In this document: piece after piece, positions 462 to 21,231 of the stretch
Layout: each line of letters begins with the position of its first letter
Numbering within the stretch: position 1 is the first letter of the stretch
IMG/VR virus record: IMGVR_UViG_2698536518_000005
Reading direction: 5' to 3' (one strand)
Length of the DNA stretch: 21,231 bases
DNA from: a virus
Lineage: Duplodnaviria > Heunggongvirae > Uroviricota > Caudoviricetes
Notes under the pieces: generated by a model
Told to the model about the DNA's origin: nothing
Database searches by the model: none
Seen by the model: only the letters and a program-made list of their open reading frames with translations
Made by a program: the position numbers and the translations under genes

Positions 462-462
<1 letters not shown>
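1..462 (-). CDS. stf: Side tail fibre protein (Stf-like), internal/C-terminal portion; frame runs off the window start
   Basis: Minus-strand frame is open from 462 to 1 and reads MRGWTIKGKPASGRAVLSQEQDGIKSHTHS...GAHTHSLSGTAASAGAHAHTVGIGAHTHSVAI, matching the internal region of lambda Stf as I recall it, with its HxH repeats. ATG at 460-462. Absent from the ORF track because it has no in-window stop. Confidence 0.7.
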
Positions 463-2686
<2,224 letters not shown>

Positions 2687-2706
<20 letters not shown>

Positions 2707-3020
2707 TCTCCCGCATATTGCCAGCATGGCTTTTAATGAGCCGCTGATGCTTGAACCCGCCTATGCGCGGGTTTTCTTTTGTGCGCTTGCAGGCCAGCTT
2801 GGGATCAGCCGCCTGACGGATGCGGTGTCCGGCGACAGCCTGACTGCCCAGGAGGCACTCGCGACGCTGGCATTATCCGGTGATGATGACGGACCACGAC
2901 AGGCCCGCAGTTATCAGGTCATGAACGGCATCGCCGTGCTGCCGGTGTCCGGCACGCTGGTCAGCCGGACGCGGGCGCTGCAGCCGTACTCGGGGATGAC
3001 CGGTTACAACGGCATTAGAC
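2687..3020 (+). pseudogene. C: Capsid assembly protease gpC, N-terminal ~110 codons only
   Basis: GTG at 2687 preceded by GAGGAGGAG. Translation VTAELRNLPHIASMAFNEPLMLEPAYARVFF...SGMTGYNGI matches the lambda gpC N-terminus, then diverges at ~3017 and hits a stop. Confidence 0.85.
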
Positions 3021-4499
3021 GGATGCCCCTTTAATGGGGATCACCCGGAACAGCCCATGTTTTTTCGAGCGTTCATACACAATGGTCGGGTCAATCCCGC
3101 CAGTATCCCAGCAGATACGGGATACCGACATTTCTGCACCATTCCGGCGGGTATAGGTTTTATTGATGGCCTCATCCACACGCAGCAGCGTCTGTTCATC
3201 GTCGTGGCGACCCATAATAATCTGCCGGTCAATCAGCCAGCTTTCCTCACCCGGCCCCCATCCCCATACGCGCATTTCGTAGCGGTCCAGCTGGGAGTCG
3301 ATACCGGCGGTCAGGTAAGCCACACGGTCAGGAACGGGCGCTGAATAATGCTCTTTCCGCTCCGCCATCACCTCAGCATCCGGACGTTCGCCGATTTTCG
3401 CTTCCCATGTCTCACCGAGCGTGGTGTTCACGAAGGTTTTACGTTTTCCCGTATCCCCTTTCGTCTTCATCCAGTCTTTGACAATCTGCACCCAGGTGGT
3501 GAACGGGCTGTACGCCGTCCAGATGTGAAAGGTCACACTGTCCGGCGGCTCAATCTCTTCACCGGATGACGAAAACCAGAGAATGCCATCACGGGTCCAG
3601 ATCCCGGTCTTTTCGCAGATATAACGGGCATCAGTAAAGTCCAGCTCCTGCTGGCGGATGACGCAGGCATTATGCTCGCAGAGATAAAACACGCTGGAGG
3701 GGTCATCCGGCGTCCATTTGAGGCCAAACGGCGTCTCTTTGTCGCCAAATTTAAGATACTGCTCCTCCCCGCAGTGCGGGCAGGCAACATGAAAACGCAT
3801 AAAATGCAGGGATTCACTGGCTGCACGCTCAATCTGGCAGGTGCCTCTCACTTTGGGCGTGGAGCCACGGATGGACTTTGGCCAGACCGAGCCTTCAATA
3901 CGTTTGTCGCCAAGGAACGTCGGAGAGCCTTCCTGTTCAATATCCTCATCAAAGGCAGCAAGTTCATCATAACCCGCCACATCCACCGACTTTTCACGGT
4001 AGTTTTTTGCCGCTTTACCGCCCAGGCACCAGAAGCCACGACCATTGGAAAAACGCTTCATAGTGAGCGTGTTATCCCGGTGCTTTTTGCCATACCACGG
4101 AGCCAGCGCCAGCAGCGACGGAATATCGCGGATGGTCGGCTCAACGTGGGTTTTCATAAAGTTCTCGGCATCACCATCCGTCGGCAACCAGATAAGGGTG
4201 TTGCGCTGCTTATGCTCTATAAAGTAGGCATAAACACCCAGCAGCATTTTGGAATAACCGACACGGGCAGACTTCACCACATTCACCTCACGGATGTAGT
4301 CGCTGCCCATCGCATTCATGATGGCCCGCTGAAAGGGCAGTGTTTCCCAGCGCCCTTCCTGGTATGCGGATTCTTTCGGGAGATAGTAATTAGCATCCGC
4401 CCATTCAACGGCGGTCTGTGGCTCCGGCCTGAACAGTGAGCGAAGCCCGGCGCGGACAAAATGCCGCAGCCTGTTAACCTGACTGTTCGATATATTCAC
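3015..4499 (-). pseudogene. A: Terminase large subunit gpA, N-terminal 494 residues, ended by a stop created at a rearrangement junction
   Basis: Translation MNISNSQVNRLRHFVRAGLRSLFRPE...RVIPIKGASV matches lambda gpA residues 1-494. Lambda continues YGKPV, which is found instead at 462 on the plus strand. Confidence 0.9.
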
Positions 4500-5019
4500 T
4501 CAGCAACCCCGGTATCAGTTCATCCAGCGCGGCTGCTTTGTTCATGGCTTTGATGATATCCCGTTTCAGGAAATCAACATGTCGGTTTTCCAGTTCCGGA
4601 AAACGCCGCTGCACCGACAGGGGGATCCCGTCGAGAATACTGGCAATTTCACCTGCGATCCGCGACAGCACGAAAGTACAGAATGCGGTTTCCACCACTT
4701 CAGCGGAGTCTCTGGCATTTTTCAGCTCCTGTGCGTCGGCCTGCGCACGCGTAAGTCGATGGCGTTCGTACTCAATAGTCCCTGGCTGGAGATCTGTCTC
4801 GCTGGCCTGCCGCAGTTCTTCAACTTCCCGGCGCAGCTTTTCGTTCTCAATTTCAGCATCCCTTTCGGCATACCATCTTATAACGGCGGCAGAGTCATAA
4901 AGCACCTCATTACCCTTGCCACCGCCTCGCAGAACGGGCATTCCCTGTTCCTGCCAGTTCTGAATGGTACGGATACTCGCACCGAAAATGTCAGCCAGCT
5001 GCTTTTTGTTGACTTCCAT
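4474..5019 (-). CDS. nu1: Terminase small subunit Nu1 (181 aa)
   Basis: Translation MEVNKKQLADIFGASIRTIQNWQEQGMPVLRGGGKGNEVLYD... matches lambda Nu1. Its stop overlaps the A start, as in lambda. Confidence 0.93.
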   Translation of the reverse strand: MEVNKKQLADIFGASIRTIQNWQEQGMPVLRGGGKGNEVLYDSAAVIRWYAERDAEIENEKLRREVEELRQASETDLQPGTIEYERHRLTRAQADAQELKNARDSAEVVETAFCTFVLSRIAGEIASILDGIPLSVQRRFPELENRHVDFLKRDIIKAMNKAAALDELIPGLLSEYIEQSG

Positions 5020-5029
5020 TGTTCATTCC

Positions 5030-5225
5030 ACGGCCAAAAACAGAGAAAGGAAACGACAGAGGCCCAAAAGCTCGTTTTCAGCACCTGTCGTTTCCTTTCT
5101 TTTCAGGGGGTATTTTAAATAAAAACATTAAGTTACGACGAAGAAGAACGGAAATGCCTTAAACCGGAAAATTTTCATAAATAGCGAAAACCCGCGAGGT
5201 CGCCGCCCCGTAACCTGTCGGATCG
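5030..5225 (-). other. cos: cos site: cosB between Nu1 and cosN; 12-nt cohesive end at 5197-5208
   Basis: Reverse complement of 5021-5208 reads GGGCGGCGACCTCGCGGGTTTTCGCTATTTATGAAAATTTTCCGGTTTAAGG..., near-identical to the lambda left end as recalled. Flanking 5209-5235 matches the lambda right end (CGTAACCTGTCGGATC...). Confidence 0.85.
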
Positions 5226-5407
5226 CCGGAAAGGACCCGCAAAATGATAATAATTATCATCTGCATGTCACAACGTGCATCTACGCCATCAAACCACGTC
5301 AAATAATCAATTATGACGCAGGTATCATATTAATTGATCTGCATCAACTTAACGTAAAAACAACTTCAGACAATACAAATCAGCGACACTGAATACGGGG
5401 CAACCTC

Positions 5408-5641
5408 ATGTCAACGAAGAACAGAACCCGCAGAACAACAACCCGCAACATCCGCTTTCCTAACCAAATGATTGAACAAATTAACATCGCTCTTGAGCAA
5501 AAAGGGTCCGGGAATTTCTCAGCCTGGGTCATTGAAGCCTGCCGCCGGAGACTGTGCTCAGAAAAAAGAGTTTCTTCTGAAGCAAACAAAGAAAAGAGTG
5601 ACATTACTGAATTGCTCAGAAAACAGGTCAGACCAGATTGA
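5408..5641 (+). CDS. ynfO: Small prophage protein of unknown function (77 aa), YnfO-like
   Basis: Complete ORF in the position expected for ynfO in Qin-type prophages. Basic N-terminus MSTKNRTRRTTTRN. Name assigned by synteny and recollection. Confidence 0.55.
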   Translation: MSTKNRTRRTTTRNIRFPNQMIEQINIALEQKGSGNFSAWVIEACRRRLCSEKRVSSEANKEKSDITELLRKQVRPD

Positions 5642-6437: not shown

Positions 6438-6605
6438 TTCCTCTTTTAGTCTGTTATGACTTTCCAGTTACACAGTAAGTCGATTATATGGTGCAAACGT
6501 GTAAAAGATAAGATGAAACATCGCAATAATCAACATACGATAGTCTAAATTTTACACAAACAGACAAAGAGAATTTTCCTGAATTATCAATGCAATAGCA
6601 TCAAA

Positions 6606-6836
6606 TCAACTCAAGAGCCTTATTGCTGCTTCCAGAATTTCTTCTGAAGTAACATGTCGATCCGCGGCTACATAAATGACTTTATGATCTCCGGTCAGAG
6701 ATGGAAACCCTGCGGCCATTACAGTAAGGTGTGTTTTTTCGCCATTTGGATATTCACGCATGATGGTGTTAACTCCAGTCATCGCTGGCACTACCACTGC
6801 TGGTTCAGAGTTAAAAAAAACTATGATTTTTTTCAT
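6606..6836 (-). CDS. Small hypothetical protein (76 aa from MKKIIVFF...), possibly YnfN-like
   Basis: ORF 6606-6878. The start at the internal ATG (6834-6836) is preferred because a terminator hairpin sits at 6878-6900. Identity is uncertain. Confidence 0.45.
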   Translation of the reverse strand: MKKIIVFFNSEPAVVVPAMTGVNTIMREYPNGEKTHLTVMAAGFPSLTGDHKVIYVAADRHVTSEEILEAAIRLLS

Positions 6837-6877
6837 GATGTTACCGTAGTATGTGAGTATCCATCGAATAGACACCA

Positions 6878-6900
6878 AGCAAAAAAGCTCCCGAAGGAGC
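6878..6900 (-). terminator. Rho-independent terminator (GCTCC-CGAA-GGAGC hairpin with T-run on the minus strand)
   Basis: Stem 6887-6891 / 6896-6900. The minus strand reads GGCTCCTTCGGGAGCTTTTTTGC. Lies downstream of cspI. Confidence 0.5.
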
Positions 6901-7107
6901 CTTCATTTTCACTTTTTTAAATCCAACGACAGACGGCTGGCATTTAAGTATTGTGAAATATTATCAAATGTAATCATCATTGATTTACAAAAGATACATT
7001 TTGCCCCGAAAGGATTCATGTCAGAAACATCAAAAGATGATGTTCTATACTGGGAACCATGACAACACGGGCATCTAAAGTGAATATGGTTTGTAATATT
7101 GTCTACC

Positions 7108-7320
7108 TCAAAGCGCCACTACATGAACAGCGGCAGGACCTTTAGGTCCGTTCTCAATACCAAATTCAACTTCCTGATTCTCAGTTAATGTTTTGAAATC
7201 GTTGCTCTGAATTGCTGAGAAATGGACAAACACATCTTTGCTGCCATCTTTCGGCGTGATGAAACCAAAACCTTTTTCAGGGTTAAACCATTTCACTAAA
7301 CCAGTCATTTTGTTAGACAT
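7108..7320 (-). CDS. cspI: Cold-shock protein CspI (70 aa)
   Basis: Translation [70 protein letters not shown] carries the CspA-family RNP motifs. A ~160-nt untranslated leader lies upstream. Confidence 0.93.
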
Positions 7321-7682
7321 AATTATTACCTTTTGAAGAAATTAGCCCTTGGGCAGAATGGTCCGAAAAAAAATATCAGAGAGAAAAACCAACAAGGAAA
7401 TCTCAAGAGGTACAAATAATAAAATTATAACAATGACTGCTTCAGATAAATTTGTAACAAACCAGAACACCATTAACGCATGATTAACCACCCATAGCAA
7501 GGATTACTTTTGTAAAGAAAAACACAGCAATGAAAGAATAGCTTTATTTATTAATAAAACGTGTCATTCTGATTAAGACCTTTTATCTTACCCTTAAGAT
7601 TTCAGGAATTTTGGCTCATGGAAGAGTCCTTTTTATTTAAATTTTACATTCCGCGATGTAAATGTTCCGATTTAATATTACC

Positions 7683-8706
<1,024 letters not shown>

Positions 8707-8710
<4 letters not shown>

Positions 8711-9018
8711 AGATATTTATGATGAGGACGCTCGTGCTTATTGGCAGGATTTTCAATCTTAAAGGAGTACTGATGCTGCAGATAAGACTCAACTTTTTCT
8801 GACAATTTTTCTGCTACTTCCAGGAAGACTTGCCGGACGCTCCTTCTGGCTGCTGCCTCATAAAACTCCAGCGCAGCTCCTTCAACACGGTCCATGGCGA
8901 CATCCAGGTCAAAAATTTCACCGTCAAAGCGTTCTTTGTCCTGTAAGGCTACAGTTACCGTAACTTTATTCTCAAAATTACGGACTCCTTTCACAACCAG
9001 TTCATAGTCTTGAGTCAT
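8707..9018 (-). CDS. ydfR: YdfR-family protein (DUF1327-like) within the lysis cassette
   Basis: Complete 103-aa ORF between holin and endolysin with overlapping stop/start, as in Qin-type prophages. Confidence 0.65.
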
Positions 9019-9022
9019 TGGA

Positions 9023-9238
9023 TTACTCTCCTCTCGCAGCCTTACGCCTGTCTTCTTTAATCTTGAAATAAAGATTTGTCAGATACGTCAGCAGGCCAAA
9101 AACCAGGCTACCCAGCACACCGATTGCAGCCCACTGTGACGGAGTTACTTTATCGAGTAACTGCAATGCCCAGAAACCAGCATTACCCGCCGATGTGCCA
9201 TAGGCAACACCTGTTGTTAACTTATCCATTGATTTCAT
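9023..9238 (-). CDS. essQ: Class II pinholin (S21-like, 71 aa) with dual start MKSM
   Basis: From the internal Met: [71 protein letters not shown]. Two transmembrane domains and the dual-start motif typical of phage 21 S. Confidence 0.85.
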
Positions 9239-9457
9239 ATCCTCACCCCGATGTACACGGATGGTGCAATATGTTTGAAAAGATCGGAGTCTACGGGGTA
9301 GTTTTGACAGCACACGTTGTTCTCAACGGCGCTAAAAAAACATACACATTAAAAATGTGGGTAATTATTTTGAAAGAAAGTCATATATAAAATAATAATA
9401 CGAGAAATGTTTTCATATTTAGTGTACTGTATACGGCCATTTATACAGGAAAAGCCT

Positions 9458-9628
9458 ATGTCAGAACGTAAAAACTCAAAATCACGCCGTAATTATCTCG
9501 TTAAATGTTCCTGCCCAAACTGCACCCAAGAGTCAGAACACAGTTTTTCAAGAGTACAAAAAGGTGCCCTTTTGATCTGCCCTCATTGCAACAAAGTATT
9601 CCAGACAAATCTTAAAGCTGTAGCCTGA
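9458..9628 (+). CDS. ynfU: Small zinc-ribbon protein (56 aa; CxxC...CxxC), YnfU-like
   Basis: MSERKNSKSRRNYLVKCSCPNCTQESEHSFSRVQKGALLICPHCNKVFQTNLKAVA. AGGAAAAG RBS before the ATG at 9458. Name from recollection. Confidence 0.5.
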   Translation: MSERKNSKSRRNYLVKCSCPNCTQESEHSFSRVQKGALLICPHCNKVFQTNLKAVA

Positions 9629-9680
9629 TTGATTTTATTAGTAACAAGTATTTTTTATATTTTAATAATATATTTAAAGC

Positions 9681-9710
9681 AGATAATAAAAAACCCGCCT
9701 GAGCGGGTTT
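9681..9710 (-). terminator. Rho-independent terminator (AAACCCGC-CTGA-GCGGGTTT; strongest on the minus strand)
   Basis: Hairpin 9691-9710. The minus strand is followed by TTTTTTATTATC. The plus-strand side is weaker. Confidence 0.5.
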
Positions 9711-9991
9711 GAGATTGTGGTGCTTTTTGTGGGAGTCATCCACTTACGCACTTTGTTTTGCCATGCCAGCAGTTAGCTTCTGCTGTAAAACTATTCATGC
9801 AGCAAACCTGCACTTCACCACAATGGTTAGCATACTTTTCCTGATTAAGATTTTGCCAAATATGCTAGCCATTGTTTCATGTATTGGACCTCCTTACTTT
9901 TTATTAAAGAGATCCAATATTCACTACTCTGTCCGTATCTCTACTCAGGCATCAGCCTTCTTCGTTATCGTATACAGACGAGCGATGAATT

Positions 9992-10207
9992 TTAATCAGT
10001 AATGATGACATTTGCTGCTGCAGGACCTTTAGCACCACTCTCTATAGAGAAGGTAACCTTTTGACCTTCAAATAAGGTTCGATAATTATCATTCTGAATC
10101 GCAGAAAAATGCACAAACACATCTTTACTACCATCAACAGGAGAAATAAAGCCGAAACCTTTATCAGCGTTAAACCATTTTACTAAACCAGTCATTTTAT
10201 TTGACAT
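9992..10207 (-). CDS. cspB: Cold-shock protein CspB (71 aa)
   Basis: Translation [71 protein letters not shown]. Confidence 0.93.
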
Positions 10208-10507
10208 TCTACATTCCTTAACTTGAGCCTTTCGGCATAAATGGTTTGCATAACAGAAACGACTTCGTACTTAATTGGAGAGACTCAAAGAAGGAATAAG
10301 TGAATAACACCTGAAATGAGAACTGCTTTAGTAAACTACTTCGTATATCGTCTGTTCTTCAAACCGACGCAATCATTAACGCATAGTTGAACATATGAAG
10401 CAATGTTTATTTTAGACATCCAGCCATCTTCAACCCCATCAAAAAACTATAGCTTTCTTCAGGAACGTGTGTATAGTGCGCCAAGTTATCAGTATTAAGG
10501 AATTTTT

Positions 10508-10720
10508 TTGTCCCGTAAAATGACAGGAATTGTCAAAACCTTTGACGGCAAAAGCGGCAAGGGTCTTATCACCCCATCCGATGGTCGTATCGATGTCCAG
10601 CTTCATGTTTCAGCGCTCAATCTCCGCGATGCAGAAGAAATTACCACCGGATTACGCGTGGAATTTTGCCGGATAAATGGTCTGCGTGGCCCTTCAGCTG
10701 CCAATGTTTACCTTTCATGA
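10508..10720 (+). CDS. cspF: Cold-shock-like protein CspF (70 aa)
   Basis: Translation [41 protein letters not shown]...[10 protein letters not shown]. Divergent from cspB. Confidence 0.9.
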
Positions 10721-11010
10721 GCTATATTAAAGCTTTAATTTCAGGCCCCATCGGATCACACATGGAGAGTTTTTATGAATAACCCCGTCTGTCTTGATGA
10801 CTGGTTGATTGGCTTTAAAAGCTTATGCTGTACTTTGGCCGTAATAGCTCTGCTAATAATATAATAAGCAGACTCATTGTGTTTAGGGACATTGTACTGG
10901 AAGAAAACATTTTAAACATCAGGCAAATAACCAAGTCACCAGCTAAATAATAAGTTAACAGACATGAGTCCCGGGATGAGATTCAACATTACCATTGCCC
11001 CATTTAAAGC

Positions 11011-11048
11011 ACAAAACCCGCTCATCAGCGGGTTTTCTACTTTTTCTT
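11011..11048. terminator. Bidirectional rho-independent terminator (CCCGCT-CATC-AGCGGG with U-runs on both sides)
   Basis: Plus strand: hairpin then TTTTCTACTTTTTCTT. Minus strand: hairpin then TTTTGTGCTTT. Lies between convergent cspF and Q; candidate tR' for the late transcript. Confidence 0.6.
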
Positions 11049-11081
11049 AACGTCGGGTATACAAAGCCCATCGTTGAAAAA

Positions 11082-11110
11082 ATTTTATCCATATTTTTTG
11101 AAAAATGCAA
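11082..11110 (-). promoter_or_regulatory. Candidate late promoter pR' (-35 TTGCAT, 17-bp spacer, -10 TAAAAT on the minus strand), just downstream of Q
   Basis: Minus-strand hexamers at 11110-11105 and 11087-11082. Positioned like lambdoid pR' between Q and the downstream terminator. Not verified. Confidence 0.3.
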
Positions 11111-11141
11111 ACATCATGTCGCCATCTTCAGCAAAAATCAT

Positions 11142-11858
11142 TTATCTCGTCACCTTCCTCAATTGCGCTTCCGCGTATGCTTCTTCCTGCCAGCACTTTG
11201 TTACCAGTTTACCAATGACGTCCGCATACCCCTTATACCACTGATAATCGGTCAGGTCTGGTACCAGCTTCTGGACATGACGTCGTGCCAGCGTGGTCGG
11301 TAAACGACTAAACCGGTTTCCATTACAACGCCCACAAATCTTATATACCGGTACGCCATGAAACCGGGTTCTTTTTTCATCCAGAACAATCCCTTTACCC
11401 TTACACCCTCTGCACGCTGTGCTGGCTTCGCCCTTACCATGGCAATGCTGACATAGTTCCTTCACCCATTCTTCCTTGATTACAGATTCCCCGCGTCTGT
11501 AGTGTTTCACCACTTCGCGCAATACATTATAAAATCCCGTACCTGAACAATGCTCACAGCGAGCCTTACTTGCCGCAGACCTGGAGTAATCAGCAAAGGC
11601 AAAACTCACGAGGTAAGGAATAATCTGTAACCGGATTTCTTCACTCAATTTGTTCAATGTCGGGTTATCCAGTGCCATCGCGTAATTTAGCAGGCCTTCA
11701 ATCGCAAACTGAGGGTCCTGAACACCAACTTTTGCCAGAAATAAGGCCAACCCAAGTGGTGCTTTCGACTGCACCATCCCCTGCGCTGCCATTTCAACGC
11801 ACACAGCATAGAGGCCATCTTCACAAAAAATTTTACGCAGTTCTTCGATGTTCATCAT
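11142..11858 (-). CDS. quuQ: Late-gene antiterminator Q (238 aa) with four CxxC motifs
   Basis: CEHCSGTG / CQHCHGKG / CRGCKGKG / CGRCNG zinc motifs. Sits upstream of the lysis genes in the same orientation. Confidence 0.8.
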   Translation of the reverse strand: MMNIEELRKIFCEDGLYAVCVEMAAQGMVQSKAPLGLALFLAKVGVQDPQFAIEGLLNYAMALDNPTLNKLSEEIRLQIIPYLVSFAFADYSRSAASKARCEHCSGTGFYNVLREVVKHYRRGESVIKEEWVKELCQHCHGKGEASTACRGCKGKGIVLDEKRTRFHGVPVYKICGRCNGNRFSRLPTTLARRHVQKLVPDLTDYQWYKGYADVIGKLVTKCWQEEAYAEAQLRKVTR

Positions 11859-11971
11859 CAGAATCCTTCCGGATAATTAGCTCTCCCCTTTAAGGGACCA
11901 TCCCTCTTATCCCTGCGCGCTACTTAAGTATTTTTGATTCTATTCCGGCACCGTCCAGAACTTCAAACGCG

Positions 11972-12006
11972 TTGAAAATAAAAACAAAAACCCGCCGAAG
12001 CGGGTT
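11972..12006 (-). terminator. Rho-independent terminator downstream of hokD
   Basis: Hairpin CCCGC-CGAA-GCGGG at 11991-12004, followed on the minus strand by TTTTTGTTTTTATTTTC. Confidence 0.7.
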
Positions 12007-12074
12007 AAGTGCGGGTGCGTTGAGGATGCCTGCCACATCAGAGGTGGCGAGGGATTTCTCCCCCGCCGGGTCTC

Positions 12075-12230
12075 TTACTCCTCAGGTTCGTAAGCTGTGA
12101 AGACAGCGACCTCCGTCTGGCCGGTTCGGATTCGTACCTCGCAGAGGTCTTTCCTCGTTACCAGTGCCGTCACTATGACGGTTAAACAGATGACGATCAG
12201 GGCGATTAACATCGCCTTTTGCTGCTTCAT
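12075..12230 (-). CDS. hokD: Hok-family small toxin HokD/RelF (51 aa)
   Basis: Hand translation of the minus strand: MKQQKAMLIALIVICLTVIVTALVTRKDLCEVRIRTGQTEVAVFTAYEPEE. Too short for the ORF track. Confidence 0.9.
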   Translation of the reverse strand: MKQQKAMLIALIVICLTVIVTALVTRKDLCEVRIRTGQTEVAVFTAYEPEE

Positions 12231-14129: not shown

Positions 14130-14807
14130 TCAATCTTTTTTATCGGGATCAGGCTTCTTTTTAGGTAACTTCGGGGGCTTAACTTGCTGATGACTTTGCG
14201 TTCGGCGCGTAAGCCAGGGATGGTCAGCTTTAGGTTTAACATAGTATTTTGAGCGTAAATCAATACGGGCATTATCCACTCGTTCATGGACACTCTTTTC
14301 ATCATCCAGTGGTATAGGCTCCGGGCCATCAACATACTTTTCCCAGCCCAGCGCTTTCCCGTCATACAGAACGTTAATTTCACCGTCAAAGTTCTCGCAT
14401 ACAGTAACAACCGAATGCCTAAGTCGATATCCCCGGCCCTCACTGCGTACCTGAAACGCACTGCTTTTGTACTGGAAAGTGAGATTTTTAGACAGAACGC
14501 GCTTCGCCTGTAGGCTGAAGATATAACCCAGTTCCTCTTCAGAATGGTGCACATCAAGATGAGCATTATCAGTAGTACGAGGCGACGTAGCGAACCGGTT
14601 GTTATAGGCTTCAATAAAGGTCGGCAACCATGCATTTGCTGTTTCAATATCACTGATATTCTGAAGCCGCATTTCTTTGACCAGCCTGTCCTGTAGTGTC
14701 TGATTGGCGCGCTCTACCCGCCCTTTTGCCTGCGGGCTGTTGGCATGGATTGGCTCGATGCCCAGTGTCTTTATCGCACGAGTGAACTGGGTCAGCTCAC
14801 CTTCCAG
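14130..14807 (-). pseudogene. C-terminal fragment (~225 codons) of a DDE/rve-type transposase or integrase core; N-terminal part missing
   Basis: Minus-strand frame reads ...FTRAIKTLGIEPIHANSPQAKGRVERANQTLQDRLVKEMRLQNISDIETANAWLPTFIEAYNNRFA..., the signature region around the third catalytic E of rve domains. The frame opens right at the dicC junction with no upstream D-D region or start codon. Confidence 0.65.
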
Positions 14808-14893
14808 CTATAAAGCGAAGCCAAACGAATACCTGCTGCTTGTGCAAGTTTTGTTTTTGAACCGAAATACAAAAGAGCGTCAGTTTTAAGCAT
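14792..14893 (-). pseudogene. dicC: dicC (Cro-like regulator) truncated after codon 31
   Basis: Hand translation MLKTDALLYFGSKTKLAQAAGIRLASLYSWK matches the DicC N-terminus, then runs VS-stop where the transposase-derived sequence begins. Divergent from dicA. Confidence 0.75.
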
Positions 14894-14976: not shown

Positions 14977-15384
14977 ATGGAAACAAAAAATTTAACTATC
15001 GGCGAACGCATCAGGTATCGTCGGAAAAACCTCAAACACACCCAAAGGTCTCTTGCTAAAGCCCTGAAAATCTCCCATGTGTCTGTATCACAATGGGAAC
15101 GGGGTGATAGTGAACCTACAGGGAAGAACCTTTTTGCCCTCAGCAAAGTATTGCAATGCTCACCAACATGGATTCTATTTGGCGATGAAGACAAGCAACC
15201 AACACCACCTGTTGAGAAGCCAGTTGCCTTATCCCCCAAAGAACTAGAGCTCCTTGAGCTGTTTAATGCACTGCCAGAATCAGAACAGGATACCCAGCTC
15301 GCCGAAATGCGAGCTCGAGTAAAAAACTTCAATAAACTCTTTGAAGAATTACTAAAAGCCCGTCAGCGGACAAATAAAAGATAA
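14977..15384 (+). CDS. dicA: DicA, HTH (XRE-family) repressor of the dicB operon (135 aa)
   Basis: Translation METKNLTIGERIRYRRKNLKHTQRSLAKALKISHVSVSQWERGDSEPTGKNLFALSKVLQCSPTWILFGDED... Confidence 0.95.
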   Translation: METKNLTIGERIRYRRKNLKHTQRSLAKALKISHVSVSQWERGDSEPTGKNLFALSKVLQCSPTWILFGDEDKQPTPPVEKPVALSPKELELLELFNALPESEQDTQLAEMRARVKNFNKLFEELLKARQRTNKR

Positions 15385-15444
15385 CATCATCAATGAGTTA
15401 TCTTTTACCACATCAATTATGTTAGCTATAGCATACAAAATCAC

Positions 15445-15473
15445 TTGACCGATATGTTAGTCATGGCTAATCT
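15445..15473 (+). promoter_or_regulatory. Candidate dicB-operon promoter (-35 TTGACC, -10 TAATCT) overlapped by a TTAG-N6-CTAA operator
   Basis: TTGACC at 15445-15450, 17-bp spacer, TAATCT at 15468-15473. Operator TTAGTCATGGCTAA at 15457-15470. Confidence 0.5.
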
Positions 15474-15550
15474 TGTTTGCATCAACACACCGCACGGTGT
15501 TCTCAGCAAACAGTTCCGCTACCCCAGCGTTAAGGGGAAATGAGGTCAGC

Positions 15551-15706
15551 ATGGATACTATCGATCTTGGCAACAACGAATCTCTGGTGTACGGCGTGTT
15601 TCCAAACCAGGACGGCACGTTCACCGCAATGACGTATACCAAAAGCAAAACGTTTAAAACCGAAAATGGTGCCCGTCGCTGGCTGGAAAGAAACTCAGGT
15701 GAGTGA
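15551..15706 (+). CDS. ydfA: YdfA small protein (51 aa)
   Basis: MDTIDLGNNESLVYGVFPNQDGTFTAMTYTKSKTFKTENGARRWLERNSGE. GGGGAAATGAGG RBS. Confidence 0.8.
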   Translation: MDTIDLGNNESLVYGVFPNQDGTFTAMTYTKSKTFKTENGARRWLERNSGE

Positions 15707-15707
15707 T

Positions 15708-15836
15708 ATGGATTTCGACACAATCATGGAAAAGGCTTACGAAGAATACTTCGAAGGCCTTGCCGAAGGCGAAGAAGCTCTCAGCTTCAGTGAGTTTAAA
15801 CAGGCGCTTTCCAGTTCGGCAAAATCTAACGGCTGA
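15708..15836 (+). CDS. ydfB: YdfB small protein (42 aa)
   Basis: Hand translation MDFDTIMEKAYEEYFEGLAEGEEALSFSEFKQALSSSAKSNG. Start 2 nt after the ydfA stop. Confidence 0.8.
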   Translation: MDFDTIMEKAYEEYFEGLAEGEEALSFSEFKQALSSSAKSNG

Positions 15837-15865
15837 TAAGCGAAACAGCACCGCGAGGAATCAGT

Positions 15866-16084
15866 ATGCAGAAACGAGAACCCGTCATCATCGCGCCAGA
15901 CTATACCGATGATGAACTTTATGAGTGGATGCGCCAGAAAATTAATGCAGCGCAGGATCTGAAATGGGCTAATGAAGCCAGGGCTAAGCAGGCTGAAAAT
16001 CTGTCCGCTCTGGAGCAGGATATCACCAATCTGGAAAAAGCAGCGGCATTAAGCATTGCCAGAATGATTACATACCCGCGTTAG
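15866..16084 (+). CDS. ydfC: YdfC (72 aa)
   Basis: MQKREPVIIAPDYTDDELYEWMRQKINAAQDLKWANEARAKQAENLSALEQDITNLEKAAALSIARMITYPR. GAGGA RBS. Confidence 0.85.
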   Translation: MQKREPVIIAPDYTDDELYEWMRQKINAAQDLKWANEARAKQAENLSALEQDITNLEKAAALSIARMITYPR

Positions 16085-16424
16085 TAGCTAATCAACAAAG
16101 CTAAGGTTAGTAATTAAGGAGTTCTCCACGGGTGAGGTGGAGTGCGTGCGCCGGACACGGGTGCGCATCCGGAACTGACAGTTTACTGAAAGGATATTTC
16201 CCTGAAAAGTCAGACCATAACGCGAAAGCGCACGGCGAGGTAGCTGGTTCATAGATAGCCTGTCGTTAAATTTTCGTCGACCGTGCGCTTCCGGTTGTGG
16301 CAACCCGCGAAATGGCGCGGCGGTAAGTATGGCGGGGTTATTCCTTCCCCGTTGAGGACACCGGGTTGTCAGGTTGACCATACGCTTAAGTGACAACCCC
16401 GCTGCAACGCCCTCTGTTATCAAT

Positions 16425-16482
16425 TTTCTGGTGACGTTTGGCGGTATCAGTTTTACTCCGTGACTGCTCTGCCGCCCTTTTT
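16425..16482 (+). ncRNA. dicF: DicF small RNA (53 nt plus U-tract), antisense regulator of ftsZ and other targets
   Basis: Sequence TTTCTGGTGACGTTTGGCGGTATCAGTTTTACTCCGTGACTGCTCTGCCGCCC followed by TTTTT matches DicF. The 3' GC hairpin acts as terminator. Confidence 0.9.
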
Positions 16483-16651
16483 AAAGTGAATTTTGTGATG
16501 TGGTGAATGCGGCTGAGCGCACGCGGAACAGTTAAAACCAAAAACAGTGTTATGGGTGGATTCTCTGTATCCGGCGTTAATTGTTAACTGGTTAACGTCA
16601 CCTGGAGGCACCAGGCACTGCATCACAAAATTCATTGTTGAGGACGCGATA

Positions 16652-16840
16652 ATGAAAACGTTATTACCAAACGTTAATACGTCTGAAGGTTGTTTTGAAA
16701 TTGGTGTCACTATCAGTAACCCAGTATTTACTGAAGATGCCATTAACAAGAGAAAACAAGAACGGGAGCTATTAAATAAAATATGCATTGTTTCAATGCT
16801 GGCTCGTTTACGTCTGATGCCAAAAGGATGTGCACAATGA
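16652..16840 (+). CDS. dicB: Cell-division inhibitor DicB (62 aa)
   Basis: MKTLLPNVNTSEGCFEIGVTISNPVFTEDAINKRKQERELLNKICIVSMLARLRLMPKGCAQ. GAGGA RBS. Confidence 0.9.
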   Translation: MKTLLPNVNTSEGCFEIGVTISNPVFTEDAINKRKQERELLNKICIVSMLARLRLMPKGCAQ

Positions 16841-17028
16841 ATTCAGCATTTGTGCTTGTTCTGACAGTTTTTCTTGTTTCCGGAGAGCCAGTTGATATTG
16901 CAGTCAGTGTTCACAGGACAATGCAGGAGTGTATGACTGCAGCAACCGAACAGAAAATTCCCGGTAACTGTTACCCGGTCGATAAAGTTATTCACCAGGA
17001 TAATATCGAAATCCCGGCAGGTCTTTAA
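16837..17028 (+). CDS. ydfD: YdfD (63 aa), small membrane lysis protein
   Basis: MNSAFVLVLTVFLVSGEPVDIAVSVHRTMQECMTAATEQKIPGNCYPVDKVIHQDNIEIPAGL. ATGA overlap with the dicB stop. Confidence 0.85.
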   Translation: MNSAFVLVLTVFLVSGEPVDIAVSVHRTMQECMTAATEQKIPGNCYPVDKVIHQDNIEIPAGL

Positions 17029-19664: not shown

Positions 19665-19916
19665 ATGAGCGAAGTAATCATGATTGTCTCTCCCGGCAAA
19701 TGGGTATCCGAAGAGCAGTTAATTGCGCTGAAAGGAATAAAAAAAGGTACGTTAAAAAAGGCCCGGGAAAAATCGTTTATGGAAGGAAGGGAATATAAGC
19801 ATGTCGCTCATGACGGTATGCCATGGGATAACAGTCCATGCTTTTACAACCTGGAAGAAATTGATCGCTGGATTGAGCGCCAGGCATCAGCGAGACCAAG
19901 ACGTCATCTTACTTGA
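19665..19916 (+). CDS. Excisionase-like small protein (83 aa)
   Basis: Small basic ORF immediately upstream of the integrase. Similarity to Rac-type putative excisionases is recalled only loosely. Confidence 0.55.
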   Translation: MSEVIMIVSPGKWVSEEQLIALKGIKKGTLKKAREKSFMEGREYKHVAHDGMPWDNSPCFYNLEEIDRWIERQASARPRRHLT

Positions 19917-19950
19917 CTAAAAGCCACACTAACTAATGAGAGAAGTTGAA

Positions 19951-21231
19951 ATGAAATATCCGACAGGCGTGGAAAACCATGGAGGGAAATTACGTATCTG
20001 GTTTGTTTATAAAGACGTAAGAGTCAGGGAAAATCTGGGGGTTCCTGACACAGCAAAAAACAGGCGCGTTGCAGGTGAACTACGCTCCTCTGTTTGTTAC
20101 GCAATAAAAACTGGTGTTTTCGACTATGCAAAACAGTTTCCCTCCTCACGCAATCTGGAAAAATTTGGTGAGGCCCGACAAGATTTAACCATAAAAGAAC
20201 TGGCTGAAAAATTTCTGGCACTGAAAGAAACTGAAGTCGCCAAAACATCACTCAACACATACCGTGCCGTCATCAAAAATATCCTGAGCATAATCGGTGA
20301 AAAAAATCTTGCCTCATCGATTAATAAAGAAAAATTACTGGAGGTTCGTAAAGAGTTACTGACTGGATACCAGATCCCCAAAAGTAACTATATTGTTACA
20401 CAACCAGGGAGATCGGCTGTAACTGTAAATAATTACATGACAAATCTTAACGCCGTGTTCCAGTTTGGTGTTGATAACGGTTACCTGGCAGATAATCCGT
20501 TTAAGGGGATCTCGCCATTAAAGGAATCAAGAACCATTCCGGATCCTCTTTCGCGGGAAGAATTTATCCGTCTTATCGATGCGTGCAGAAATCAGCAAGC
20601 AAAAAATTTATGGTGTGTTTCTGTTTATACTGGAGTTCGCCCTGGTGAGCTGTGTGCACTTGGATGGGAGGACATAGATCTGAAAAATGGAACAATGATG
20701 ATCAGGAGAAATTTAGCAAAAGACCGTTTCACGGTACCAAAAACACAGGCGGGAACCAATCGGGTCATTCATCTTATTAAGCCAGCAATCGACGCTCTCC
20801 GGAGTCAGATGACATTAACGAGACTGAGCAAAGAGCATATCATTGATGTTCACCTCAGAGAGTATGGCAGAACAGAAAAACAAAAATGCACCTTTGTTTT
20901 TCAACCTGAAGTGTCAGCGAGAGTAAAAAATTATGGTGACCATTTTACCGTTGACTCAATAAGGCAGATGTGGGACGCAGCGATAAAACGTGCCGGACTC
21001 CGCCATCGAAAATCATATCAGTCGAGACATACTTATGCCTGCTGGTCGCTGACAGCTGGTGCTAACCCGGCATTTATAGCAAACCAGATGGGCCATGCAG
21101 ATGCGCAAATGGTATTTCAGGTATACGGAAAATGGATGTCTGAAAACAATAATGCACAGGTAGCTTTGTTAAATACACAGTTAAGCGAGTTTGCCCCAAC
21201 CATGCCCCATAACGAAGCAATGAAAAATTAA
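19951..21231 (+). CDS. intQ: Tyrosine site-specific integrase with DUF3596-type arm-binding N-terminus (426 aa from MKYPTG; alternative start at 19936)
   Basis: N-terminus MKYPTGVENHGGKLRIWFVYK... resembles Rac IntR-type integrases. C-terminal catalytic region carries the R...HxxR...Y signature (RHTYACW, VYGKW). Stop at 21229-21231. Confidence 0.88.
   Translation: MKYPTGVENHGGKLRIWFVYKDVRVRENLGVPDTAKNRRVAGELRSSVCYAIKTGVFDYAKQFPSSRNLEKFGEARQDLTIKELAEKFLALKETEVAKTSLNTYRAVIKNILSIIGEKNLASSINKEKLLEVRKELLTGYQIPKSNYIVTQPGRSAVTVNNYMTNLNAVFQFGVDNGYLADNPFKGISPLKESRTIPDPLSREEFIRLIDACRNQQAKNLWCVSVYTGVRPGELCALGWEDIDLKNGTMMIRRNLAKDRFTVPKTQAGTNRVIHLIKPAIDALRSQMTLTRLSKEHIIDVHLREYGRTEKQKCTFVFQPEVSARVKNYGDHFTVDSIRQMWDAAIKRAGLRHRKSYQSRHTYACWSLTAGANPAFIANQMGHADAQMVFQVYGKWMSENNNAQVALLNTQLSEFAPTMPHNEAMKN

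Follow-up and report, generated by a model that had tools for sequence, protein, structure and literature searches.

In lambda-type packaging the terminase nicks cosN, stays on the cosB end of the cut DNA and docks on the portal, and the cosB end enters the head first (PMC4669245). The substrate consists of concatemers (PMC4669245, PMC4856287), and termination requires cosQ together with cosN at the next cos, failing which packaging runs on and fails (PMC4856287). The spacing between cosN and cosB was found to be critical by Feiss and colleagues (PMC9026076), and terminases of the phage 21 type discriminate more than 1000-fold (PMC4669245). A cloned lambda cos suffices for the transfer of a plasmid by lambda, which is the principle behind cosmids and has since been demonstrated anew (Fillol-Salom et al. 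2019, PMC6739421).

Chromosomal elements are also known to be packaged through cos. In O157 Sakai the terminase-defective prophage Sp4, whose cos is nearly identical to those of related phages, is amplified by the regional replication of a neighbouring prophage, excised and encapsidated by means of the terminase of the co-resident Sp14, as established by experiment (Asadulghani et al. 2009, PMC2669165). The cos-type PICIs, such as EcCICFT073 (Fillol-Salom et al. 2018/2019), reside in the chromosome, carry int and lambda-like cosQ and cosN sequences, depend on helper capsids and helper TerL, replicate, and encode, next to a divergent cosB, the protein Rpp that redirects the helper TerS. In addition, recombinants between lambda and the defective prophages Qin, Rac and DLP12 arise at measurable rates (De Paepe et al. 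2014, PMC3945230).

The 21.2-kb stretch of DNA analysed here in its entirety, hereafter the window, is a Qin-type lambdoid prophage inserted in the ydfJ gene of E. coli. An original prediction, made from its letters, held that it keeps an intact lambda-type cos next to Nu1 while being unable to package itself, and that a lambda-like phage could in principle package it in trans, in the manner of a cosmid, with relBE, dicBF and the csp genes as cargo. Here we set this locus beside the systems outlined above. The comparison suggests, with a probability of roughly 0.8, that the site is the cos of a recently decayed Qin-type prophage in ydfJ, still competent as a terminase substrate, and intact by recency rather than by purpose.

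Identity of the element and course of its decay

Membership of the Qin group is indicated by the integration in ydfJ and by the gene order nohA, ynfO, ydfO, gnsB, cspI, lysis genes, cspB/F, relBE and dicA/B/F. Between ydfJ' and rspB the window is 100% identical to strain N61 (NZ_AP028880), the genome closest to it, except for a 4.3-kb segment found only in N61, and it is 99.8-99.96% identical to Qin of K-12 MG1655 in the blocks common to both. As annotated in N61, the genes rightward of cos are ynfO, ydfO, gnsB, ynfN, cspI, Rz/R/holin, cspB and cspF, followed by the truncated Q, hokD, relBE, flxA, dicA, DicF, dicB, an exonuclease gene, xis and int. A scan of the window against Rfam returned DicF and two cspA thermoregulators (cspA-type leaders), all outside the cos interval, in which no RNA family was found. 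The excisionase gene xis (19665-19916, plus strand) and the gene for a full-length tyrosine integrase (19936/19951-21231, plus strand; Pfam Arm-DNA-bind_2 and Phage_integrase) are both intact in the N61 annotation, and no other function in the window could release the element as a circle.

The live counterpart of Qin is PhiR42.1 (Escherichia phage PhiR42_1, PV340562), an isolated temperate phage whose record contains the attP joint of both prophage ends and is therefore that of an excised genome rather than of a predicted prophage. In BLAST comparisons, three of the four large blocks of the window are 99.93-99.98% identical to it, the xis/int block (19665-21231) at 99.97%, and only five mismatches occur over 18.2 kb of collinear window sequence, a divergence of about 0.03%. 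Among the genes carried by PhiR42.1 are relBE, hokD, dicA/dicC, members of the ydfA-D family and three csp genes (the dicB/DicF locus was not confirmed).

Qin of K-12 occupies the same ydfJ site and has the same gene order (nohA-cos-ynfO) as the window, and the same holds for PhiR42.1. The two prophages have decayed differently. In K-12 Qin a larger deletion has joined nohA to stfQ, intQ is disrupted by IS2 and a lambda-type patch lies on the cosQ side of cos; the window, in contrast, retains gpA fragments, W, the portal gene, the exonuclease gene, xis and int, whereas ydfU, part of Q and the dicC-O region are gone from it. nohA and Qin have been annotated in K-12 for decades, and the lambda qin111 hybrid of Espion and co-workers (1983) reportedly carried the Qin late region (Q-S-R-cos) in working form.

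When aligned by BLAST to the whole PhiR42.1 genome, the window resolves into that genome minus three deletions plus one inversion. The largest deletion, of 17.5 kb (phage 28245-45750), reaches from codon 110 of C to distal stf and has removed the scaffold, capsid and head-completion genes and all tail genes. A deletion of 4.7 kb (phage 7494-12201) has taken dicC', cII, O and their neighbours, that is, the replication module, and one of 1.7 kb (phage 15222-16911) has joined rem' to Q'. The resulting in-frame rem'-Q' fusion (11142-11858, minus strand), in which Pfam Antiterm matches residues 143-230, corresponds to the late-gene antiterminator Q without about 33 N-terminal codons.

The inverted block (462-3015, plus strand) comprises gpA codons 495-641 (462-905), W (902-1108), the portal gene B (1105-2706) and the first 110 codons of C (2687-3016); by BLAST, window positions 462-3017 match PhiR42.1 25690-28245 in the orientation opposite to that of the neighbouring block. 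One breakpoint lies within the gene for the large terminase subunit, TerL. Residues 1-494 of gpA are encoded at 3016-4499 on the minus strand, where the ATPase domain and the first part of the nuclease are followed by an immediate stop, and are all identical to PhiR42.1 gpA; residues 495-641 lie in the inverted block on the plus strand. Pfam likewise places GpA_ATPase and positions 2-177 of the 294-position GpA_nuclease profile on one piece and positions 195-286 on the other, so that the break at codon 494/495 bisects the endonuclease domain. The split in gpA is caused by the inversion and not by a frameshift or an IS insertion.

As to the origin of the inversion, the neighbouring PinQ invertase was considered and rejected: the invertase crossover core AAACCNNGGTTT occurs only at chance level, with no match at the junctions, and the junction sequences are unlike gix/hix sites. 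The inverted block is 98.8% identical to PhiR42.1, as against 99.97% elsewhere. Derivation of the block from another prophage was also rejected, as the mismatches do not begin at the breakpoint but about 800 bp inside the block, within the portal gene; the lower identity is, to judge from this distribution, ordinary mosaicism.

The claim that the element cannot package itself is borne out by these losses: the gpA nuclease is cut in two, nothing remains between mid-C and mid-stf, and Q is truncated. The original prediction was also correct in describing gpA as split and Nu1 as intact, the former now explained by the inversion and the latter seen in a full-length product of 181 residues. This Nu1 gene, named nohA in the RefSeq annotation of N61, encodes TerS at 4474-5019 on the minus strand, with its ATG at 5019, and matches Pfam Phage_Nu1 over the complete profile (1-164/164, E=2e-101). 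It differs from lambda Nu1 by three conservative changes (K48R, A75T and L132I), with the recognition helix (residues 17-24) and the wing (31-39) unchanged.

Structure of cos and its predicted competence

A complete lambda-type cos occupies positions 5019-5260 on the minus strand, directly upstream of the intact Nu1 gene. As reference we used lambda NC_001416 joined across its ends. Subsite coordinates were taken from Murialdo & Feiss 2022 (PMC9026076) and from the annotated phage 434 record OL657226, which places cosN at 1-12, R3 at 50-65, the IHF site I1 at 74-86, the inverted R2 at 108-123, R1 at 151-166 and cosQ 24-30 bp before the right end; the extent of I2 was taken from PMC4856287. Against this reference the interval shows ten substitutions (at 48459, 48467, 48471 and 48486, and at bp 54, 73, 102, 134, 145 and 176) and one 1-bp deletion (bp 138), with a BLAST identity of 95.9%. 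Only one difference, that at 48486, falls between lambda 48472 and bp 53, and the stretch from cosQ to R2 contains no insertion or deletion, which preserves the critical spacing between cosN and cosB.

Seven subsites follow one another in the canonical order. The packaging-termination subsite cosQ (GGGTCCT; 5232-5238, minus strand), corresponding to lambda 48473-48479, stands 23 bp upstream of the nick, the distance seen in lambda and 434. The 12-nt cohesive end of cosN, GGGCGGCGACCT (5197-5208, minus strand), corresponds to lambda bp 1-12, has identical flanks, and is matched exactly only once in the window, at 5208..5197; by our calculation, chance alone would give about 0.003 exact copies in 21 kb, both strands counted. 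The spacer I2 between cosN and cosB (5160-5191, minus strand; lambda bp 18-49) shows no differences. Within cosB, the TerS binding site R3 (5144-5159, minus strand; lambda bp 50-65) carries a single change, G54A, at window position 5155; the IHF-binding core I1 lies at 5123-5135 (minus strand; lambda bp 74-86); the TerS binding site R2, TGTCGTTTCCTTTCTT (5086-5101; lambda bp 108-123), is on the plus strand and thus inverted with respect to R3 and R1; and the accessory TerS binding site R1 lies at 5043-5058 (minus strand) and equals that of lambda. All subsites other than R3, that is, cosQ, cosN, I2, the I1 core, R2 and R1, are identical to lambda, and the A-to-G change at bp 73, which adjoins the I1 core, is also present in phage 434. 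The three R-type repeats stand in the arrangement R3-R2(inverted)-R1, where 0.36 repeats would be expected by chance.

In cosN and its flanks, in the distance of cosQ, in the complex cosB, in the R3 contact bases and in the cognate TerS gene downstream, the site is that of a lambda-type phage: the subsites, their order, orientation and spacing, the Nu1 gene that follows, and the TerS helix and wing are the same as in lambda and 434. It differs from both in its setting, which is a remnant with no working TerL, capsid or tail genes. The near identity to lambda of cosN and its cosB- and cosQ-like flanks, as originally proposed, thus stands, and the alignment of 5019-5260 by which it was to be judged leaves cosN, R2 and R1 unmutated and R3 altered only by G54A.

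A multiple alignment of cos from lambda, 434, PhiR34.1, Kati, 2H10, an Stx1 phage and K-12 Qin puts this change in context. Every window-lambda difference except that at bp 54 is found in phage 434 too, while the A54 allele, and indeed the same cosB allele, is common to the window, PhiR42.1 and K-12 Qin. G54A is the only change within a protein-binding subsite, base 54 is G in all three R sites of lambda, of which R3 matters most (PMC9026076). It could therefore be argued that the site is a dead look-alike, in which G54A and the other substitutions abolish terminase recognition. We regard this as extremely improbable. The segment contacted in the NMR structure is bp 55-63 and the genetically defined functional bases in R3 are bp 56, 58 and 59 (PMC9026076); base 54 lies outside the former and is not one of the latter, and R3 bases 55-65 are identical to lambda. 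In the multiple alignment bp 55-65 are invariant, whereas the neighbouring base 53 varies in the viable phages 434 and 2H10 and in the Stx1 phage.

The strongest evidence for competence is comparative, in that the same sequence occurs in an isolated phage. Window positions 5000-5330 (331 bp) are 100% identical in PhiR42.1; from cosN across Nu1 as far as the breakpoint in gpA there are 0 mismatches in 2193 bp, and in the opposite direction 1 in 3493 bp, so that the phage has the same cos together with identical Nu1 and gpA N-terminal sequences. G54A is evidently tolerated by PhiR42.1, whose TerS DNA-binding domain is identical. On this comparison the cos of the window looks functional and is almost certainly a competent substrate for a terminase of lambda specificity; it would be recognised by a TerS with the lambda recognition helix together with IHF.

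Competence of this kind does not call for selection. At 0.03% divergence a neutral segment of 242 bp is expected to hold about 0.07 substitutions, and a remnant about 99.97% identical to a live phage needs no selection to have an intact cos. By this measure the element appears to be a young relic, a prophage that would have lost its morphogenesis genes so recently that its cos has had too little time to mutate. K-12 Qin, which is more degraded, also retains an intact cos, and the persistence of cos in more degraded copies could be a hint that it is lost more slowly than structural genes.

Packaging polarity and routes of transfer

If a heteroimmune lambda-type phage were growing in the cell, its terminase could nick the chromosomal cos. 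As the cosB end is packaged first, packaging from the integrated site would proceed leftward through Nu1, the left arm and ydfJ. In N61 this path runs through the remaining left arm, which ends with pinQ and ydfK, to ydfJ and then to ydfI, dcp and the mar region. The genes csp, relBE and dicBF all lie on the cosQ side, and leftward packaging would move away from them. No second cos was found within about 60 kb downstream in N61, and the 49 kb past the N61 prophage contain only host genes and only chance-level cosN matches with two mismatches. In N61, packaging in situ could therefore not terminate, and although it may start toward Nu1 and ydfJ, no infectious transducing particle would be formed.

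This polarity bears on the mobilisation proposal. Its premise, trans-packaging in principle, is supported by a complete cos of lambda specificity and by the precedents of cosmids and of Sp4/Sp14, but would require a chain of unlikely steps, and we consider the reading correct in principle and partly supported overall. The part that had relBE, dicBF and csp travelling as cosmid-like cargo is not supported as it stands, since packaging runs the opposite way and these genes lie on the cosQ side. Their transfer would need excision by Int and Xis and head-to-tail multimers, such as dimers of 2 x 24 kb; with the replication module gone, rare recombination would be the only source of multimers. The genes could instead enter the helper genome by homologous recombination, an alternative to dimers that is far better documented.

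The lengths involved have some bearing on this route. From the attP core of PhiR42.1 and the flanks in N61, the excised unit is calculated at about 24.0 kb, or 0.50 of the PhiR42.1 genome, and the N61 prophage at 28.3 kb. Lambda packages DNA of about 75-105% of its genome length, and cos cleavage itself is said, after work by Feiss and Siegele in 1979, to depend on chromosome length. Within this range a monomer of 24.0 kb would be too short, its dimer of suitable length, and the N61 dimer, at about 57 kb, too long. The choice of helper would be restricted as well: dicA lies in a block 99.97% identical to PhiR42.1, and with a near-identical repressor gene a helper of the PhiR42.1 type would be homoimmune, so that the helper would have to be heteroimmune and of lambda packaging specificity.

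These figures invite the view that the remnant is turning into a helper-dependent satellite, with cos, int and xis under selection and a 24-kb unit spreading csp, relBE, hokD and dicBF as a dimer. It would account for a cos that is intact and of lambda specificity, for int and xis that are intact, unlike those of K-12 Qin, and for a unit of half the PhiR42.1 genome, of which a dimer makes one headful; suitable helpers are common, a cos-carrying E. coli genome having a median of two lambda-type sites, and Sp4 of O157 Sakai provides a precedent. Yet the element has no replication module or origin, the O region being deleted, and no rpp-like redirecting gene or divergent cosB, a plain Nu1 adjoining cos instead. 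The N61 version is too long for its dimer to stay within the lambda packaging limit, the inversion and deletions resemble random decay, and at about 0.03% divergence from a live phage selection is unneeded. We therefore hold a satellite in the making to be very unlikely. Packaging of the excised half-length remnant as a dimer by a heteroimmune helper of lambda specificity, which would make the element a nascent satellite, is in our estimation a long shot; if it did occur, relBE, hokD, dicBF and the three csp genes would spread without recombining into the helper.

Comparison with described satellites points the same way. Like the cos-type PICIs, the element is chromosomal, has int and a lambda-like cosQ and cosN, and would rely on helper capsids and TerL. 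It differs from them in its size of about 24 kb, in having the phage's own cosB with Nu1 adjoining, and in the absence of a replication module: none is annotated in the window sequence, phage 7494-12201 being deleted, and in place of rpp with a divergent cosB the window has a full-length Phage_Nu1 and lambda R sites. By its gene content the element is not a PICI. It also has features in common with Sp4, likewise a defective lambdoid prophage with no functional terminase and with a cos nearly identical to those of related phages, but Sp4 was followed by experiment through replication, excision and encapsidation, whereas the window is known from its sequence and has no replication genes.

Nicking of the chromosomal cos would have another consequence. 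The nick could give rise to a double-strand end, and recombination could then be stimulated on the cosQ side. In an extension of this idea, cos-Nu1 would serve mainly as a recombination substrate, terminase cuts promoting exchange of late modules, and the remnant would be a gene reservoir that is not packaged. At DLP12, half of the recombination junctions lie next to cos, and a double-strand break at cos has been invoked (PMC3945230); in K-12 Qin, a lambda-identical patch starts from cosN and extends only on the unprotected cosQ side, while the cosB side keeps the Qin allele. Recombination of this sort, however, follows from the presence of a cos and does not show that cos is retained for that purpose; mosaic joints at cos may equally date from free-phage ancestors, and no such event is visible in the window itself. 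As an account of why the site is there, we consider it unlikely, and recent decay of a Qin-type prophage, with cos still competent, remains our preferred explanation.

Prevalence and significance

Of 5426 complete E. coli genomes, 4591 contain a match to this cos; the places matched number 8799, with a median of two per genome that has any, and the site is ubiquitous in E. coli. The feature is an ordinary leftover of an already-known kind and not a new mobilisation device. Nor is the idea of its mobilisation new: for defective lambdoid prophages, as for plasmids with a cos, there are earlier reports of packaging in trans.

That a common cryptic prophage still carries what is predicted to be a live terminase target has little importance beyond bookkeeping. 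It is relevant to the recombination, stimulated by cos, of incoming lambdoid phages with resident remnants, and to possible cutting of the chromosome during lambda-type infections; in the engineering of strains for cosmid or phagemid production, chromosomal cos sites would be unwanted substrates. A more useful by-product of the comparison is the recognition of PhiR42.1 as a fully functional living counterpart of Qin. This phage already moves most of the cargo genes, which therefore need no cosmid-like route.

Relation of the window to the Qin phage PhiR42.1

The isolated temperate Escherichia phage PhiR42.1 (PV340562.1) is a fully intact "Qin phage". The Qin gene set is whole in its genome, with int, xis, exoVIII, genes of the ydfA-D family, dicA/dicC, relBE, hokD, rem, ydfU, Q, cspF/B/I, the lysis genes, gnsB, ydfO, ynfO and cos, and the lambda-like head and tail genes are complete; dicB carries no annotation in the record. 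The entire window (1-21231) can be described as PhiR42.1 minus three deletions and with one inversion; over 18.2 kb the two sequences show 5 mismatches. Approximately 780 bp are repeated at both ends of the PhiR42.1 record (1-1030 and 47889-48668), with the attP core located at record positions 1013-1030. This terminal duplication is probably the untrimmed overlap of a circular assembly, and the true genome size would therefore be about 47.9 kb.

Deletion joints and RNA elements

At the joint at 14802-14809, the window lacks a 4.3-kb segment of the closest genome, that of E. coli strain N61, which spans most of an ISNCY transposase fragment through to the dicC-proximal replication genes. The window dicC is truncated at this deletion. 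An 8-bp overlap between the flanking sequences where they meet suggests a microhomology deletion. A separate 1.7-kb deletion created a rem'-Q' ORF of 238 aa (11142-11858, minus strand), in which the first ~23 codons of rem are joined in frame to Q minus ~33 of its N-terminal codons; the Antiterm domain is intact in the fused product. Rfam matches identified cspA-type thermoregulator leaders at 7081-7466, upstream of cspI, and at 9976-10368, upstream of cspB, both on the minus strand, as well as the DicF sRNA on the plus strand (16426-16477).

The inverted head-gene block

Both inversion junctions of the gpA'-W-B-C' block (461-463 and 3015-3017) carry a TA dinucleotide, the TA of gpA being present at both ends of the block, and the inferred C'/stf' deletion joint likewise falls on TA. 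A search for an invertase crossover motif that might account for this inversion found none. The junctions could be accounted for by two events, first an inversion between gpA and stf and then a deletion, with 2 bp of microhomology used in each. The block differs from PhiR42.1 at 30 positions, all within the portal gene and C' (1260-2995); the first mismatch lies some 800 bp inside the block, and the other parts of the prophage are nearly mismatch-free. The 1260-2995 interval has the appearance of localised mosaicism within the head genes.

Allele switch at cosN in K-12 Qin

Qin of K-12 MG1655 and the window have the same allele on the cosB/Nu1 side of cosN, where 719 bp show 0-1 mismatches. 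Across cosN, on the cosQ side, K-12 positions 6558-6900 of the extracted locus correspond to window 5209-5545; here the first 336 bp of K-12 Qin are identical to lambda and depart from the window at 11 positions between -17 and -119. K-12 Qin therefore switches allele at cosN, and the switch is on the side unprotected by terminase. Among the matches sampled, those at 100% to this chimeric cos version were largely K-12 laboratory derivatives. The arrangement fits either a conversion by lambda stimulated by cutting at cos or an old mosaic joint.
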